A stretch of 64,000 nucleotides of DNA. Origin: Eledone cirrhosa. Taxonomy: Eukaryota. Position numbers and translations under genes: made by a program. The notes beneath the pieces are model-generated. The model was not told the origin of the DNA. It saw nothing but the letters and a program-made list of their open reading frames with translations, and searched no databases. Positions 11,524-44,691 of the stretch are shown in pieces (within the stretch, counting starts at the first letter, position 1; each line of letters begins with the position of its first letter). The DNA is taken from positions 115,196,001 through 115,260,000 of the forward strand of contig OZ024741.1 in NCBI GenBank assembly GCA_964016885.1. The letters are read 5' to 3'.

Positions 11524-11627
11524 TGTCCTTCATCAGTGATCTTCCAACTATCATAGGCATTTCATCGCTTTAAAGACCATATACCTCCGGTTGGTGCGAG
11601 CAACGGCTAAAAAAAGTCGTTGGGACA
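11524..11627 (-). ncRNA. Reverse-order (pseudoknotted) hammerhead candidate, family P1
   Basis: Reverse complement of the motif at 12366-12469. Confidence 0.65.
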
Positions 11628-12365: not shown

Positions 12366-12469
12366 TGTCCCAACGACTTTTTTTAGCCGTTGCTCGCACC
12401 AACCGGAGGTATATGGTCTTTAAAGCGATGAAATGCCTATGATAGTTGGAAGATCACTGATGAAGGACA
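12366..12469 (+). ncRNA. Reverse-order (pseudoknotted) hammerhead candidate, family P1
   Basis: GGTAT-A-TGGTCTT ... GCGA-T-GAA-ATGCC ... AAGATCA-CTGATGA-A-GGACA; stems I and III pair, with a K-turn in stem III. Confidence 0.7.
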
Positions 12470-12981: not shown

Positions 12982-13084
12982 TGTCCCAACGACTTTTTTA
13001 GCCGTTGCTCGCACCAACCGGAGGTATATGGTCTTTAAAGCGATGAAATGCCTATGATAGTTGGACGATCACTGATGAAGGACA
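12982..13084 (+). ncRNA. Reverse-order (pseudoknotted) hammerhead candidate, family P1
   Basis: Second tandem copy of 12366-12469. Confidence 0.65.
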
Positions 13085-13108
13085 AACATTTTTCATATAT
13101 ATATATAT

Positions 13109-14055
13109 TGTTATGCTTTGGGAGGGTCATGTTGCCAATAATAAACACACGCACCAGTTGCTTTCACTCCAATTATTATAAATTAAATTTATAAATTTAA
13201 GAATTTATAAATTTCCGGTTGGTTGGTTGGTTCTATAACTGGACAGTTCTTCATATATTGTCAAAGTTCTTTCGTCACACATATGTGACCTCTTAAGTGA
13301 CTGGGGATTCTTTTCTTTGTTTTGTGCCTCTCCTTTGTACTGTCCTACGCCATCTTGTTTTTGTGTGTGTTGCGTGTTAGTTTGCGCATGTGTTACATCA
13401 GGGTGTCTGAGTGTGTTTTTATTTGTTTATTTATTTCTTTATTTACATGTTACTAGTTAGTTGTTTGTTCTATGTGTGTGTGTGTGTTTTCATTTGGTCC
13501 TTAATTGTAAGTTGTGATCTTGCTATTCCATTCATGTTTTCTATTCTTTTTTCTCCAACCAAAATTAAATAGAAAACATGAATGGAATAGCAACATCACA
13601 ACTTACAATTAAGGAGAAAATGAAAACATACACACACATAGAACAAACAACTAACTAGTAACATGTAAATAAAGAAAGAAATAAACAAATAAAAACACAC
13701 ACAGACACCCGGATGTAACACATGCGCAAATTAAGTACACACAAAAACAAGATGGCGTAGGACAGAACAAAGGAGAAGCACAAAACAAAGAAAAGAATGC
13801 CCAGTCACTGAAGAGGTCACAGATGTGTGACGAAAGAACTTTGACAATATATGAACAACTGTCCGGTTATGGAACCAACCAACCAACCGGAAATTTATAA
13901 ATTCTTAAATTTATAAATTTAATTTATAATAAATTGGTGTGAAAGCAACTGGTGCGTTTCTTATTGGGAACATGACCCTCCCAAAGCATAACAATATCGG
14001 TTTCAACACACGTTTTCAGATAAAGAATCTTGCTAAACAAATTCAGAAACGAAAT
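13109..14055. repeat. Fold-back pair of PLE pLTR-like repeats (about 440-bp arms)
   Basis: 13109-13546 is the reverse complement of 13565-13995; related to 36475-36835 and 40931-41520. Confidence 0.9.
13804..13845 (+). ncRNA. Minimal type I hammerhead
   Basis: GTCA-CTGAAGA-G-GTCACA-GATG-TGTGAC-GAAAG-AA-CTT-TGAC. The mirror copy at 13260-13301 has CTTAAGA (G5 lost). Confidence 0.85.
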
Positions 14056-16511: not shown

Positions 16512-17505
16512 ATGAAGAAAAGAAGAAAAAAGGTCTAAGAGAAAAAAGGGGAATAAAAACAGAAGAAAGGGAAGATACGGAGAGAAAAAAAAAGAAAATG
16601 AAGCGGAATAAAGAAAAAAAAAGAAGAGGAAAAAGAAAGCATAAAATAAAGGGAAGAATAAAAAAAACCGTTGTATTCAAATGCTAGACAAAATTAGAAA
16701 TTAAAAATGTTTCATATTTATCAGTGAATATCGCCTGTATTGGATTACGCTTTAGTTAATTACAAGTTTATATTGTATCCAGATTATTAGGCATAGATTA
16801 CTTTCTATAGCAATAAAATATTTAAGTTAATTACAAATTTATGTTTAAATCAATTTAATTTAATTTAACACATTCTAGATTATTATAATTTTTTATTATA
16901 AGGTAAGATATTCTATTAATATTATACTACAACTTTAAAAGAATTTATCTTTAAAGCCTAATTAAATAATTATTAAATATGTATTAAAATATAATAACAT
17001 GCATATATCTCCATCAATATATATAATATATTTTGTTCATGTATGATCTAAATTAATTTAAAATTTGAAAATTCACTTTTTGTGAAACTTCGTTGTTTTT
17101 TAATTTTCAGTTATTTCTTAGAATCCAACTGTGGTTATATTTACTCTCTATAAATTTTATTTCATTTAATGAACGGTTATATTTACTTCTGTATTTAATT
17201 ATTCTGATATATATAGTTTCCTTTTAATGATAGTCTATGTATTATTAAATTATTAATCATTATTAATTATTAATCATTAAGTTTATCATATTATTTGTGG
17301 TATAAACACGTTGAGGGTTGGTGAAATAAATCACTGCCACTATTGGAATTGAATAATGAAAACTGTAGCGGTACGTCACATATCAAATCTTATATTTTAT
17401 CTGATGAAAACGTACTTAAACACCATTGTACCTTTGAAATATGTATAATGAAATATATATTATGATTATGAGAATATTTTTCATTTATTAATATTTTGAA
17501 TAATA
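16170..17505. repeat. Inverted repeat pair (16170-16393 / 17279-17505), each arm with a hammerhead
   Basis: The arms are reverse complements; HHRs at 16220-16276 (-) and 17396-17452 (+). Confidence 0.85.
17396..17452 (+). ncRNA. Type I hammerhead (AUA triplet)
   Basis: TTTAT-CTGATGA-AAACGTAC..GTACCTTT-GAAAT-ATGT-ATA-ATGAA; homologues at 16220, 22121 and 48111. Confidence 0.7.
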
Positions 17506-17662: not shown

Positions 17663-17959
17663 ATAATAATAAATTTGAAGACTAATATCCAAAGAGGGCT
17701 CGATAAGGATAAATATATATCAAATATATAAGAAACGTAGAGCAAATATTTATTAAAATAACAGATTAAAGTTTAAGCAAAGAATCACTGCTTTCAACCT
17801 TAACGGGATCTTCTGAAACTAATAAATATTTGCTCTACGGTTCTTATATATTTGATATATATTTATCCTTATCGAGCCCTCTTTGGATTTTAGTCTTCAA
17901 ATTTATTATTATTACTATTTGGCTCCCTCGGTTGAGCACTCTACTGACTTATATTCATC

Positions 17960-20089
17960 ATGCAGAAACAACATCTGAATATTTCTACAAAGAACATACC
18001 CGTACCAAGCAGGAAAACATACCTAAAACTCCTGATACAGAAAACAGACGCGTTCATTAAAAGGTTGCGTTGGCGTGCCTTTTATTTCGATAATCCGCGA
18101 AAAGCAGACAACAAACAGGATAAATTTGGATTTAAAACCTATAATAACCCCCCGTGTAACCCAGCATTGCTACCCTTCGAAAATGATGTTTTGGAACTCA
18201 TTCGGAGTATCAAATTTCGGAATAGGAGCAATTCCTTCCAGCAAGAACTGAAGAATAGAATTCGTTCTATTAAGGATTCTAATGCCGTGCACGTCCATTC
18301 CGACAAAACTGGCAACCTATATCAAGTGGAGCGCAGTACTTACCATCAACTACTACATAATGCTGTAACTAAGGATTACCGTAAAACTAATCGGTGCGTC
18401 ATCAATGAAATCAACGATGCTGGGTTTATAATCACACCTGATCTCAACATCCTGGACCGGACCGAACCTCCGGACCCCATTTCTCCCCACTTTACCCTGA
18501 AGGATCACAAATCCAATTTTCCGAACAACCCCTCTTTTCGGCTTATTAACCCTACGAAGTCCGATTTAGGCAGACTTAGTAAAACGATTCTTGATAGAAT
18601 TATACCTGAAATTAGAAGTTTGGCCCCTCTTGCACTGTGGAACAATTCCTTCGCGGTGATTGATTGGTTCAACGGCATATGTAACAAGGAACATTGCCGT
18701 TTTATCCAATTCGACATCAACAATTACTACTCCTCCATCACTTTACCACTTCTCCTTAGAGCTATCAATTTCGCTAAAACACTCACAGTGGTTAAGGATT
18801 TCGAAGTTGATGTCATCCTAAATGCCCGAAAGTCGGTGATTAATTTCGACGACTCTATTTGGATTAAAAAATCCAATAGTACCTCATTCGACGTGAGTAT
18901 GGGCGCCTGTGATTCTGCGGAGGTTACTGATCTTATCGGCCTTTTCCTTCTTTTCTCTATCAAGGATGAATTCCCCAACGCGGGCGGTGGTTTGTACCGT
19001 GACGATAGTCTTTTGACCATGACTAAGTGCGGACCTCGTGCTTGCGACAGGTTCAGAAAAGAACCCACAGCCTTCTTTAAAGGCTTCAGCCTCTCTATAC
19101 AGGTTGAGGCCAATCTCTCAGTCGTTAATTACCTCGACGTTTCCCTCAATTTATTGAATGGGTTGTATTACCCGTATAGAAAGCCGAATGATACGCTTAA
19201 TTACATAACTAAGCATTCCAACCATCCTGCCAGCATAACCAAGAACCTGGTAAGAAACGTTTCGTTGAGGCTTTCCCGTCTTTCCACCAACGAGCGTATT
19301 TTCAACGACCATTCCACTTATTACAATGAAGCTCTTGCTCGAAGTGGATTTTTCGATAAGGTAGCATATACAGAGTACGAAAATAGACCTAGAAGAAATA
19401 GATCCCGTCGCATTTGTTGGTATAACCTACCATATAATATGGAGGTGGCCACACCTTTAGCTAAGATCTTTCTTTCCCTTATTACGAAGCATTTTCCCCC
19501 TACACATAAATATAGTAAACTTTTTAATAGAAATACTATTAAAATTTATTACTCTACGACTCCTAACCTTGCACATAACATCACAGCTTCAAATTTAGCT
19601 AATCTACCTAGCCGTAGGAACACGTGCAACCCTGTAGTTAGTACTAACTGTAATTGTAGGAATCGGGTTGATTGCCCCCTATCCGGGAAATGCCTCTCTA
19701 GTAACATTGTCTATAAATGTAAGGTTGTAACACCCACGTCCCGTAGGGCCTACATAGGGTTAACCGCCAATAGATTCAAGCAGCGGCTTTACATGCATAC
19801 CCATTCTTTTCGTTACCCTCTAAGAAGGAATATGACGTCACTCTCAGCTTATATCTGGAGTCTAAAAGACAACCACACCCAATATAAGTTACACTGGGAG
19901 ATCCTAGCTAGGGCTAGATCGTATAACGGAAAGAAAAGACCATGTGACCTCTGCGCCGCTGAGGCCCTGGAAATACTCTACGCCACAGACCACATCTTAA
20001 ACAAAAAATATGAGGCAATTTCGGCTTGTAAACATAAATTGCACAAAACTTTCCTGTATTACAGCCCCACGTTATACCCTAACGGATAG
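17960..20089 (+). CDS. PLE polyprotein, reverse transcriptase plus C-terminal GIY-YIG endonuclease (709 aa, Naiad-like)
   Basis: STKNIPVPSRKTY N-terminus; TLKDHK..RLINPTKSDLG; RT motifs FDINNYYSSI, FDVSMGACDSAE and GLYRDD; CNCRNRVDCPLSGKC; IVY..AYIGLT..FKQR; CDLC. Confidence 0.93.
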   Translation: MQKQHLNISTKNIPVPSRKTYLKLLIQKTDAFIKRLRWRAFYFDNPRKADNKQDKFGFKTYNNPPCNPALLPFENDVLELIRSIKFRNRSNSFQQELKNRIRSIKDSNAVHVHSDKTGNLYQVERSTYHQLLHNAVTKDYRKTNRCVINEINDAGFIITPDLNILDRTEPPDPISPHFTLKDHKSNFPNNPSFRLINPTKSDLGRLSKTILDRIIPEIRSLAPLALWNNSFAVIDWFNGICNKEHCRFIQFDINNYYSSITLPLLLRAINFAKTLTVVKDFEVDVILNARKSVINFDDSIWIKKSNSTSFDVSMGACDSAEVTDLIGLFLLFSIKDEFPNAGGGLYRDDSLLTMTKCGPRACDRFRKEPTAFFKGFSLSIQVEANLSVVNYLDVSLNLLNGLYYPYRKPNDTLNYITKHSNHPASITKNLVRNVSLRLSRLSTNERIFNDHSTYYNEALARSGFFDKVAYTEYENRPRRNRSRRICWYNLPYNMEVATPLAKIFLSLITKHFPPTHKYSKLFNRNTIKIYYSTTPNLAHNITASNLANLPSRRNTCNPVVSTNCNCRNRVDCPLSGKCLSSNIVYKCKVVTPTSRRAYIGLTANRFKQRLYMHTHSFRYPLRRNMTSLSAYIWSLKDNHTQYKLHWEILARARSYNGKKRPCDLCAAEALEILYATDHILNKKYEAISACKHKLHKTFLYYSPTLYPNG

Positions 20090-30241: not shown

Positions 30242-30340
<99 letters not shown>

Positions 30341-30352
30341 AATATACATATT

Positions 30353-30491
<139 letters not shown>

Positions 30492-30546
30492 AATATGGGG
30501 AGAAGAATACTGCATGGTTGCACATGGATAACATGTTATAAAATGA

Positions 30547-30647
30547 GTCCCTCATCAGTGATTTGCCAACGGTCATTGGTATTTCATTGCATTAAAGATC
30601 ATATACCTCACGTTGGTGCAATAATAACAAAAATAAGTTATTAGGAC
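30547..30647 (-). ncRNA. Reverse-order (pseudoknotted) hammerhead candidate, family P2
   Basis: GTCC-[TAATAAC/GTTATTA]-TTGCA-CCAACG-TGA-GGTAT-A-TGAT..TGCAA-T-GAA-ATACC-AATGAC-CGTTGG-CAAATCA-CTGATGA-G-GGAC. Confidence 0.65.
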
Positions 30648-31081
30648 AATTAAAACGCGTAAAGCGAGTGAGACAAGTAAACAACACAGGGGAAAGCTAA
30701 CCGAAGATAGGAAGAAACACAAGCTACATAGTTATTCTATCAGTATAAGCTGGGTGAATATATGAGCGATTAAGAAATAGACCTTTCGCGATGTATCCGA
30801 TGTGAGAACGAAGGAAAATCGTTTTCGTGGCGAACGGGGGGAAGTGAGAAGGGGAGAAACAGTGAGTGAGTGAATGGAAGTGCGAGGAAGTGGTCAGTAG
30901 AGAGAAAGTGTTAACTGACATGACAGAGGGGACGAAAGAAAGTAAGAGAAACAGAGAGAACGAGGGAACAGTAAGAGAGAGAGAGAGAGAAAAACAGAAT
31001 CGCAGTTTAGGTAAATATATGTGAAAAATATGGGGAGAAGAATACTGCATGGTTGCACATGGATAACATGTTATAAAATGA

Positions 31082-31182
31082 GTCCCTCATCAGTGATTTG
31101 CCAACGATCATAGATATTTCGTTGCATTAAAAATCATATACCTCACGTTGATGCAATAATAACTAAATTAAGTTATTAGGAC
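31082..31182 (-). ncRNA. Reverse-order hammerhead candidate, family P2 copy 2
   Basis: Stem I TGATTT/AAATCA; G-C closes stem II; substitutions give G-U pairs. Confidence 0.68.
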
Positions 31183-31611
31183 AATTAAAACGCGTAAAGC
31201 GAGTGAGACAAGTAAACAACAAAGAGGAAAGCTAACCGTAGATAGGAAGGGCACAAGCTACATAGTTATTCTGTCAGCATAAGCTGGGTGAATATATGAG
31301 CGCGTAGAAAATAGACCTTTCGAGATGAATCCAAATGTAAGAAAGAAGGAAATTGTTTTCGTTGCGAACGGGGTGAAGTGAGAAGGGGAGAAACAGTGAG
31401 TGAGTGAGTGGAAGTGTGAGGAAGAGGTCAGTAGAGAGAAAGTGTTAACTGACATGACAGAGGGGGCGAAAGAAAGTAAGAGAAACAGAAAGAACGAGGG
31501 AGCAGTAAGAGAGAGAGAGAGAAAAACAGAATTGCAGTTTAGGTACATATATGTGAAAAAATGGGGAGAAGAATACTGCAGGTTGCACATGGATAACATG
31601 TTATAAAATGC

Positions 31612-31712
31612 GTCCCTCATCAGTGATTTGCCAACGGTCATTGGTATTTCATTGCATTAAAAATCATATACCTCACGTTGGTGCAATCATAACAAAAATA
31701 AGTTATTAGGAC
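31612..31712 (-). ncRNA. Reverse-order hammerhead candidate, family P2 copy 3
   Basis: Same motif with a 6-bp stem I. Confidence 0.65.
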
Positions 31713-31815
31713 AATTAAAACGCGTAAAGCGAGTGAGACAAGTAAACAACACAGGGGAATATATATATATATACTGTATATGTATATAAGTAAATATGTT
31801 TTCCTAACATATTTA

Positions 31816-31911
<96 letters not shown>

Positions 31912-32453
31912 TATGTATACGTACATACATATATGTATACAGACGTACAGTAGTATGTATATATATACATACATGCATATATATATATATATAAATATAT
32001 ATATATATATGTATATATAAGTAAATATATTAAGAAAATATATTTACTTATATATACATATATATATATATAGTAATGTGTCGTGATTTTGAATCACAGT
32101 GTAATAAGAAGATAAATAATTAACTTTAAAGAAAGCAGGTGAAGATTATTTATCACGATTAAAAAAAAATTAACTTGATAGACGAGGTTAGGTGTCGGAC
32201 TGATATTAGGTATGTTGGTGTGAAATATTCATACGTTTCATATCTTATTAGGCCACTCTTCTCAGCGAACTATATTCCAATGCGTAGTATTATAGAACAA
32301 TAAAAACGATGAAAGTTTCGAATCAGGAATTATTTACATTTAAAATGTAGTGACCAGAATTTATAGTCTGTCAGAACAGAATTTTCAAATATTGAAATTA
32401 CACGAGGAACGGAAGAAAAGCAATTTTCGTTTCGAGTTTCACTTTTATGGCTA

Positions 32454-42355: not shown

Positions 42356-42450
<95 letters not shown>

Positions 42451-42600
42451 CAGGTACACACATATATATGTACGTATCAGTTTAGCGAACATTTATTATA
42501 ACGTTCGCTTTGTGCGTTTGTAAACAAACGGATAGCCTGATTTATGCCGTACGGTGTTAAGGCAACCACGTCACCTTTTTGTTCAACACTGACACAGGAA

Positions 42601-42641
42601 CGATGTACTAGTTTCAAGCTTGTTAGCTATCGTCAGCACCG
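42601..42641 (-). ncRNA. Minimal type I hammerhead (copies at 42080, 43518, 44435)
   Basis: CGGTG-CTGACGA-T-AGCT-AACA-AGCT-T-GAAAC-TA-GTA-CATCG. Confidence 0.85.
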
Positions 42642-42892
42642 TATACCCTTCTGCCAGATGGTTGAACGTTCGAAAGTATATAATTTCCTTATGAAAATTA
42701 ACGGCTGAGCAGCCTAATTTGCATATCGAGTGAGTTCAGTCGACCAGGCGCTCCGAAAACGATAAATTGGAATAGAATGAAACGAAATTTCATTTCTCAC
42801 TTTTAGTACGGCACTTACTTAAATGTAAGTATGTATGTATACGTACATACATATATGTATACAGACGTACAGTAGCATGTATATATATATAT

Positions 42893-43285
42893 ATTAATAA
42901 GAGGAATTCCAACTTTGTCTGATTTACTCGTTTTATTTACAATCCTTTAAAATATATATAATATAATATGGTATTATAATGAAATAGTATGATAGAATAT
43001 TAAATTCTAAGTGTTAATTGAACACGTACTTTCATGCTTTCGCAATCTTCAGGTTCATGATATGTGGTGACAGTCGAGTTTGCAATTTTCATTGCAAACT
43101 CGACTGTCACCACATATCATGAACCTGAAGATTTTGAAAGCATGAAAGTACTTGTTCAATTAACACTTAGAATTTAATATTCTATCATACTATTTCATTA
43201 TAATACCATATTATATTATATATATTTTAAAGGATTGTAAATAAAACGAGTAAAACAGACAAAGTTGGAATTCCTCTTATTAATA
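42893..43285. repeat. Near-perfect palindrome (about 190-bp arms) with a hammerhead in each arm; duplicated at 43810-44202
   Basis: Centre GTTTGCAAT-TTTC-ATTGCAAAC; GAAC-CTGAAGA-..GAAAG-TA-CTT-GTTC at 43121-43157. Confidence 0.92.
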
Positions 43286-44691
43286 TAATCTTCTATACAC
43301 AATCATACACACCCGTGTATATTTACCTATCTATATCTATATATATATATATATATATATATACATACAGGTATACATATATATATGTACGTATCAGTTT
43401 AGCGAACGTTTATTATAACGCTCGCTTTGTCCGTTTGTAAACAAACGGACAGCCTGATTTATGCCGTACGGTGTTAAGGCAACCACGTCACCTTTTTGTT
43501 CAACTCTGACACAGGAACGATGTACTAGTTTCAAGCTTGTTAGCTATCGTCAGCACCGTATACCCTTCTGCCAGATGGTTGAACGTTCGAAAGTATATAC
43601 TTTCCTTATGAAAATTAACGGCTGAGCAGCCTAATTTGCATATCGAGTGAGTTCAGTCGACCAGGCGCTCCGAAAACGATAAATTGGAATAGAATGAAAC
43701 GAAATTTCATTTCTCACTTTTAGTACGGCACTTACTTAAATGTAAGTATGTATGTATACGTACATACATATATGTATACAGACGTACAGTAGCATGTATA
43801 TATATATATATTAATAAGAGGAATTCCAACTTTGTCTGATTTACTCGTTTTATTTACAATCCTTTAAAATATATATAATATAATATGGTATTATAATGAA
43901 ATAGTATGATAGAATATTAAATTCTAAGTGTTAATTGAACACGTACTTTCATGCTTTCGCAATCTTCAGGTTCATGATATGTGGTGACAGTCGAGTTTGC
44001 AATTTTCATTGCAAACTCGACTGTCACCACATATCATGAACCTGAAGATTTTGAAAGCATGAAAGTACTTGTTCAATTAACACTTAGAATTTAATATTCT
44101 ATCATACTATTTCATTATAATACCATATTATATTATATATATTTTAAAGGATTGTAAATAAAACGAGTAAAACAGACAAAGTTGGAATTCCTCTTATTAA
44201 TATAATCTTCTATACACAATCATACACACCCGTGTATATTTACCTATCTATATCTATATATATATATATATATATATATACATACAGGTATACATATATA
44301 TATGTACGTATCAGTTTAGCGAACGTTTATTATAACGCTCGCTTTGTCCGTTTGTAAACAAACGGACAGCCTGATTTATGCCGTACGGTGTTAAGGCAAC
44401 CACGTCACCTTTTTGTTCAACTCTGACACAGGAACGATGTACTAGTTTCAAGCTTGTTAGCTATCGTCAGCACCGTATACCCTTCTGCCAGATGGTTGAA
44501 CGTTCGAAAGTATATACTTTCCTTATGAAAATTAACGGCTGAGCAGCCTAATTTGAATATCGAGTGAGTTCAGTCGGCCAGGCGCACCGAAAACGATAAA
44601 TTGGAATAGAATGAAACGAAATTTCATTTCTCACTCTTAGTACGGCACTTACTTAAATGTACTCACTCGATATGAAAATTAGGCTGCTCAG

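Follow-up and report, generated by a model that had tools for sequence, protein, structure and literature searches.

Two bodies of work describe the closest relatives of the repeat analyzed here, one on permuted hammerhead ribozymes and the other on Penelope-like elements (PLEs). The type SGC permutation, named after the order cleavage site, GAAA, CUGAnGA, is known, and has been reported only from environmental sequence, as far as the available portions of the paper go, and type CSG from two sequences of metagenome DNA without a host (Eckert 2023, PMC10085705). Ribozymes of both types cleave in vitro, and single SGC constructs cut during transcription. In the same portions, the SGC-3 oligonucleotides, read by eye, show a direct and intact stem II, and the authors could not see how stem III and the helix in contact with stems I and II meet. 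As to the elements, the accessible part of Craig et al. (2021, PMC8557442), whose table has 17 rows marked as Naiads, assigns to this large Penelope-like clade no canonical hammerhead but only 'cores' fitting no descriptor, and gives the cephalopod Naiads as remnants. Non-LTR retrozymes, which are regarded as non-autonomous PLE derivatives, are non-coding tandem units with one hammerhead each, and in the available text hammerheads of type I define them and are the only type looked for (Li, Clavereau, Pollet 2026, 10.64898/2026.07.22.740005). In the PLE of the green anole, reverse transcription starts inside the RNA, behind the hammerhead cut; this hammerhead cut only with added protein, and cleavage was not needed for insertion in vitro, as mutants still inserted.

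Here we analyze a repeat of the octopod Eledone cirrhosa with traits of all these systems. We consider it probable that it is a young, non-coding, high-copy repeat, inserted in the manner of a PLE, whose non-circularly permuted hammerhead motif is predicted to self-cleave after AUA and likely comes from the 3' end of a Naiad.

Repeat units in the window

The window, i.e., the whole stretch of 64,000 nt that was analyzed (assembly GCA_964016885.1, contig OZ024741.1, positions 115,196,001 to 115,260,000 of the forward strand), comes from a 3.0-Gb genome and holds two families of units, A and B, each with three copies of the motif. In family B the motif has 101 nt and recurs at spacings of 535 and 530 nt; in family A the first copy is inverted with respect to the other two. 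The coordinates and three-copy arrangement that a previous, sequence-only reading had given for family B proved correct.

30485 to 31757, minus strand: whole family B insertion, non-coding, with a 5'-truncated unit (about 31548 to 31757) and, behind it, two complete ones, each of about 530 nt
30547 to 30647, minus strand: permuted hammerhead motif, copy 1, in the order P1a-P2-P3a-P4a-K-turn-IIIa-AUA-Ia-P3b-GAAA-IIIb-K-turn-P4b-Ib-CUGAUGA-P1b
31082 to 31182, minus strand: permuted hammerhead motif, copy 2
31612 to 31712, minus strand: permuted hammerhead motif, copy 3
11525 to 11626, minus strand: family A motif, inverted unit
12367 to 12468, plus strand: family A motif
12983 to 13083, plus strand: family A motif, 615–616 nt from the preceding one

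The units are non-coding and tandem, with one hammerhead-like motif each. At the loci scanned, no open reading frame (ORF) belonging to the unit was found, nor any ORF with N-terminal GIY-YIG, CxC, DKA and reverse transcriptase (RT) in the units or within 1.5 kb of them. Upstream of one motif, at L119:1013-3259, 129 nt of the family A body have expanded into about 17 tandem copies.

Fold of the motif

The elements of the fold are located as follows, all on the minus strand, the cut being predicted by analogy with hammerheads.

30552 to 30558 (copy 1), 31087 to 31093 (copy 2) and 31617 to 31623 (copy 3), minus strand: CUGAUGA core
30582 to 30585, minus strand: GAAA core sequence, copy 1
30602 to 30604, minus strand: AUA triplet, copy 1
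30602/30601 (copy 1), 31137/31136 (copy 2) and 31667/31666 (copy 3), minus strand: predicted cut
30559 to 30601, minus strand: stem I arms, copy 1 (30596–30601 with 30559–30564)
30578 to 30607, minus strand: stem III arms, copy 1 (30603–30607 with 30578–30582)
30572 to 30610, minus strand: K-turn strands, copy 1 (non-bulged 30608–30610, bulged 30572–30577), linking stem III to P4
30566 to 30616, minus strand: P4 arms, copy 1 (30611–30616 with 30566–30571), the equivalent of the stem I/II interaction helix
30587 to 30621, minus strand: P3 arms, copy 1 (30617–30621 with 30587–30591), in place of stem II
30622 to 30643, minus strand: P2 side hairpin, copy 1
30547 to 30647, minus strand: P1 arms, copy 1 (30644–30647 with 30547–30550), closing the motif

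On the CUGAUGA strand, an upstream half running from P1a to the first arm of stem I is followed by a 4-nt linker and by a downstream half running from P3b to P1b. All window copies have the block order cleavage site–GAAA–CUGAUGA (S-G-C), and C3UGANGA9, G12AAA and the UH site are present in six of six; among 18 copies taken from the genome, the cleavage triplet is AUA in 17 and AUC in one. The reverse order announced by the sequence-only reading is thus confirmed, although the order itself had already been described as type SGC. What departs from a hammerhead is stem II: the strand 5' of GAAA pairs with the 5' leader (P3), the strand 3' of CUGAUGA does so with a separate leader segment (P1), hairpin P2 stands between these two leader parts, and the two stem II strands share at most one direct pair. 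In the E. cirrhosa copies, no multi-pair stem II directly connects the strand behind A9 with the one ahead of G12, 16 of 18 having a single pair; this pair, proposed to close stem II, is A-U, G-U or G-C in the window but is missing in 10 of the 11 Naiad motifs described below.

P4 directly follows P3a, stops 0–1 nt before stem I and continues stem III through a K-turn. The junction has the three-nucleotide bulge followed by tandem G-A and A-G pairs between two helices that define the established kink-turn consensus, with which it was compared, and both GA steps are kept in 17 of 18 copies. Stem I is paired in 95% and stem III in 100% of the cells of these 18 copies. By analogy, the motif would most likely work like a type-SGC hammerhead.

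Rfam gave no hammerhead match in the window at E ≤ 1, nor in 30400–31800 at E ≤ 10, as expected from the permuted order; its other hits were set aside, those to miRNAs being driven by microsatellites and those to U6 and snoRNAs being weak. Among the latter, positions 30460–30562 and 30992–31097 (plus strand, opposite the 3' tail) show a weak likeness to U6 snRNA (21 and 20 bits, for a gathering score of 44), which is probably due to chance. Simple folding of the motif does not recover the seven-helix structure, which is expected for a fold with several pseudoknots, a kind that a covariance model cannot hold.

The same helices might form between two RNA units, in a domain-swapped dimer or between neighboring tandem units, like those of dimeric minimal PLE hammerheads, which are thought to act as dimers. 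Covariation does not distinguish pairing in cis from pairing in trans, and the geometry of the cage is tight, a point also raised in the portion of Eckert et al. (PMC10085705) at hand. Stem III, however, has its full 5 bp, unlike in dimer-dependent types, the single SGC constructs mentioned above already cut during transcription, and many loci carry a single motif; we hence judge pairing between units to be quite unlikely and retain folding within one unit.

Conservation and covariation

With the seven-helix model, 94.7% of 170 cells are paired in the six window copies, so that every helix is kept as had been proposed, save for a C-A mismatch in stem I of copy 1 and a mismatch in the hairpin of copy 3. 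Six pairs changed on both sides, among them three in the side hairpin, one in P3 and one in stem I. Each of the helix swaps quoted by the sequence-only reading is present, but those of stem III are one-sided (A-U to G-U, G-C to G-U) and not compensatory. Its evidence of selection on the fold within the window is likewise real but thin, as it comes from two lineages and 56 of 500 shuffles also reach six pairs. (For these copies a six-copy alignment was used, automatic helix choice having misassigned P2 and P3 in the family A copy.)

A larger alignment, which had been named as a possible refutation, does show covariation. Of the 611 cells of 18 genomic copies, which represent four groups of subfamilies, 94.4% are paired, and 13 of 34 pairs changed on both sides, a number reached by 0 of 500 shuffles, which is not a probability because the 18 copies are related. 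When the structure was slid along the alignment, 26–49% of cells were paired and 0–5 pairs were two-sided. The two-sided changes fall in six of seven helices, stem III being the exception, with three in stem I and four of the six pairs of P4. Of these 18 sequences, one (A2_L047) is misaligned in P1; copies retrieved by GAAAC-forcing patterns were excluded as selected mutants.

Between families A and B, the core and K-turn GA positions are identical at 17 of 17, including CUGAUGA, GAAA, AUA and both GA dinucleotides, which had rightly been called invariant, while paired positions agree at 50 of 66 and other unpaired positions at 12 of 19. The statement that the families share little obvious sequence outside the motif did not hold: they are homologous along the whole unit, with 53–63% identity outside the motif against about 49% for shuffled sequence (z 3–8.5). 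This homology, together with the fact that family B copies hardly agree more with each other in the motif (92%) than elsewhere (91%), would suit a motif that is a mere relic of common descent, with selection no longer acting on it. Yet similarity is unequal along the unit, the motif reaching 77%, and the intact core and the two-sided changes in six of seven helices of young subfamilies also speak against a relic; this reading is largely refuted already and we give it hardly any credence. The covariation among subfamilies and the wholly different stem letters of the Naiad motifs support a hammerhead-like fold in reverse order, conserved on the CUGAUGA strand.

As for the strand, it had been deduced from G-U pairs, and this is true for copy 2 but weak overall: with 26 G-U cells to 16 A-C cells in the 18 copies, wobble pairs alone do not fix it. 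Better evidence is provided by the polarity of insertion and by the sense position of the motif behind Naiad ORFs.

The motif is abundant, well beyond chance: a core-order pattern has 5,559 + 5,835 = 11,394 matches in the genome, and the reversed pattern 2 + 4 = 6. A second pattern retrieved further families with other stem I and stem III letters (249 matches versus 9 for the control).

Naiad 3' ends

Among the published Naiad 3' ends accessible in part, and among the matches listed (places 1–57 of 62 for one core spelling and the first 10 for each of three others, a set without denominator), we could read by eye at least nine with the order S-G-C, about six of them independent, and at least six with C-S-G. 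In two published octopus Naiad consensus ends, as far as available, we found by eye the four outer helices, a K-turn and a P2 loop like that of family B.

Starting from one of the Naiad remnants of E. cirrhosa, related proteins were collected, which align with N-terminal GIY-YIG, CxC, DKA and RT, and 80 metagenome contigs were fetched. Having dropped 17 with less than 200 nt behind the ORF, we parsed 63 tails. A strict parser, which gives the SGC order an extra helix term shared by the controls, found eight SGC and one CSG motif on the sense strand of these tails, with no canonical order, none on the antisense strand and none in 189 shuffled tails. The other 54 tails are without motif; many are short, but six of at least 1.2 kb lack any core. 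A looser parser was dropped as a statistic, since over 362 kb its hits numbered 32 in sense, 23 in antisense and 17 in reversed orientation. From it, three motifs (L227, L259 and L284) were chosen by eye and tabulated with the eight strict ones. All 11 of these SGC motifs have P1 to P4, in unrelated letters, P3 abutting GAAA in each, and most have a bulge or loop where the K-turn would be.

Some Naiad ORFs are followed by CSG forms with a P4-like helix (L250, L223). Four motifs behind Naiad ORFs, found partly by eye, were missed by the strict parser (L203:3383, L221:4696, L223:3642 and L241:3427); they are CSG-like, one of them with a changed last core letter, except for one S-G-C form seemingly with a direct stem II. 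Naiad-like ORFs also occur in bacterial and archaeal genome bins (L282-L308), one of which (L284) is followed by an SGC motif; they are probably carried-along animal DNA, as Craig et al. (2021, PMC8557442) noted for similar hits in the part of their paper at hand. No Naiad relative was found in viral contigs.

In E. cirrhosa itself, an old and broken Naiad family (L172-L201; C2:198352449-198352634) has the S-G-C order at its 3' end with a U3-A8 core, a swap reported as covariation in PLE hammerheads; the letters of P1 are swapped with respect to families A and B, and there is no K-turn. All Naiad RT matches scored in this genome (150 of 220 and 146 of 1,855 candidates) are broken, with 145 and 86 matches and longest open frames of 223 and 321 aa, which agrees with the description of cephalopod Naiads as remnants. 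Three motif patterns for an intact Naiad in E. cirrhosa gave two unrelated-looking hits or none, and the DKA pattern gave five old Naiad copies. BLAST of families A and B against two old E. cirrhosa Naiad copies showed no similarity. Judging from the sequences, families A and B likely descend from a Naiad 3' end. Since the scored Naiads are broken while family B is young, a different PLE that targets (TA)n may be what mobilizes the repeat today.

Insertion and proposed mobility

The surroundings of the family B insertion in the window are as follows.

30485 to 30546, minus strand: 3' tail up to the fixed genomic 3' end, which lies about 117 nt behind the predicted cut
30338 to 30487, no strand: (TA)n microsatellite at the 3' junction
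31759 to 32072, no strand: (TA)n-rich microsatellite at the 5' junction

In the ribozyme sense, 50 family B pieces from 29 further loci were aligned; 48 of them share one end point to within 3 nt, and 26 of the 50 begin at scattered inner positions. Their median identity is 97%, hence a young family. At the 3' end, every one of the 30 loci borders on (TA)n or (CA)n, with 29 doing so at the common point, and partial tandems and inverted copies occur among the repeat loci. These traits match PLEs, and in particular Naiads, for which the accessible part of Craig et al. (2021, PMC8557442) gives insertion into (TA)n, truncation at the 5' end, partial tandems and inverted copies, and at whose 3' ends the RNA layout was read here as well; unlike Naiads, which encode a GIY-YIG-RT protein, the repeat encodes nothing. 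The motif, real and conserved, belongs to a Penelope-like repeat that is non-autonomous. Contigs of three sequencing runs of unknown kind cover this repeat and are uninformative on strand, ends and expression.

The predicted cut is not where the genomic ends fall; with the common 3' end lying behind it, the template spanned an uncut or re-joined site. Such templates would also be expected if the fold were real but served mainly as a protein-binding or packaging signal for a Penelope-like RT, along with a K-turn-binding protein, catalysis being dormant or protein-dependent. A consensus K-turn is a typical protein site, and the anole hammerhead offers a precedent both for protein-dependent cutting and for insertion by mutants. 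On the other hand, the catalytic letters are all kept across families and phyla, down to the U3-A8 swap, and the K-turn gives way to a bulge or loop in most Naiad motifs; a role chiefly as a signal is thus unlikely in our estimate, and the self-cutting motif remains the preferred reading.

With a self-cutting motif, the CUGAUGA strand would be transcribed through the tandem units and would fold into a closed cage, in which the K-turn would bend stem III back so that P4 could link stems I and II. RNAs one unit long, perhaps circular, would result from the cuts. A Penelope-like protein supplied in trans would then nick (TA)n and initiate reverse transcription within the RNA, at the end of the tail, and the copying would read through an uncut or re-joined ribozyme, over less than one to more than two units.

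The Hydra-like PLE ORF held by the window was considered as kin of the units and rejected, being without real similarity to them (best E 0.48). Positions 17948–20089 (plus strand) hold a possible trans-acting partner.

Comparison with described ribozymes

With type SGC, as presented in the available portion of Eckert et al. (PMC10085705), the motif shares the order cleavage site, GAAA, CUGAnGA, a short linker between stems I and II, and a helix tying the outer ends of these stems (their 'I', here P4, which is also found in 11 of 11 Naiad motifs). It differs in that a K-turn joins stem III and P4 on both strands, that P1 and P2 close its ends, located immediately 3' of A9, and that the partner strand of stem II comes from the 5' leader, an arrangement that the six-order scheme of the same paper assumes to be impossible. 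In type SGC, CUGAnGA is followed by the stem II strand, which has its partner in block G; here block C is interrupted, and this layout breaks the stated hammerhead rule against such an interruption. With type CSG, which has block C whole in that portion of the paper, the motif shares the circle of strands: a CSG ribozyme opened between A9 and the first letter of stem II, with its ends joined, gives the present layout. With P3 so taken as stem II, P4 would be the helix in contact with stems I and II, and the RNA a CSG circle with its opening between A9 and stem II. The K-turn suggests how stem III may reach that helix, a geometry left open by Eckert et al. The two cleaving ribozymes CSG-1 and CSG-2 may derive from Naiad-bearing animals.

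Like non-LTR retrozymes as described in the accessible text (10.64898/2026.07.22.740005), the repeat consists of non-coding tandem units with one hammerhead-like motif each; unlike in these, the order is S-G-C. Having neither an intact stem II nor the type I order, it is filed apart from both type SGC and retrozymes. The open-access literature covered holds no description of this layout, and the supplement of Eckert et al., mainly word-searched, could hide an SGC variant of the kind; a 2026 paper mentioning permutations merely cites Eckert et al. in the part available.

Taken broadly, we incline slightly to the view that Naiads of several animal phyla carry overlooked non-circularly permuted hammerheads, some of them CSG and many opened between A9 and stem II, outside the six published orders, and that E. 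cirrhosa holds more than 11,000 copies in retrozyme-like offspring outliving the Naiad parent, with the fold closed by a K-turn. As ribozymes of this kind they would be the first from animal genomes, and they would rank among the most numerous hammerheads of their carriers. Non-circularly permuted ribozymes, placed so far on environmental contigs lacking a host, would thereby gain a place in the genomes of animals, at high copy number. They would also be a possible answer to the puzzle of a large Penelope-like clade without canonical hammerheads, whose cores fit no descriptor.

Other repeats of the window

Another repeat family carries minimal hammerhead cores of the ordinary, type I-like form (CUGAUGA, hairpin, GAAA), at window positions 17401 (plus strand) and 16271, 22170 and 48165 (minus strand). 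Moreover, the window holds long self-inverted repeats at 13105–13997, 42890–43287 and 43807–44204, and a direct duplication of 917 nt at 42401–44661.
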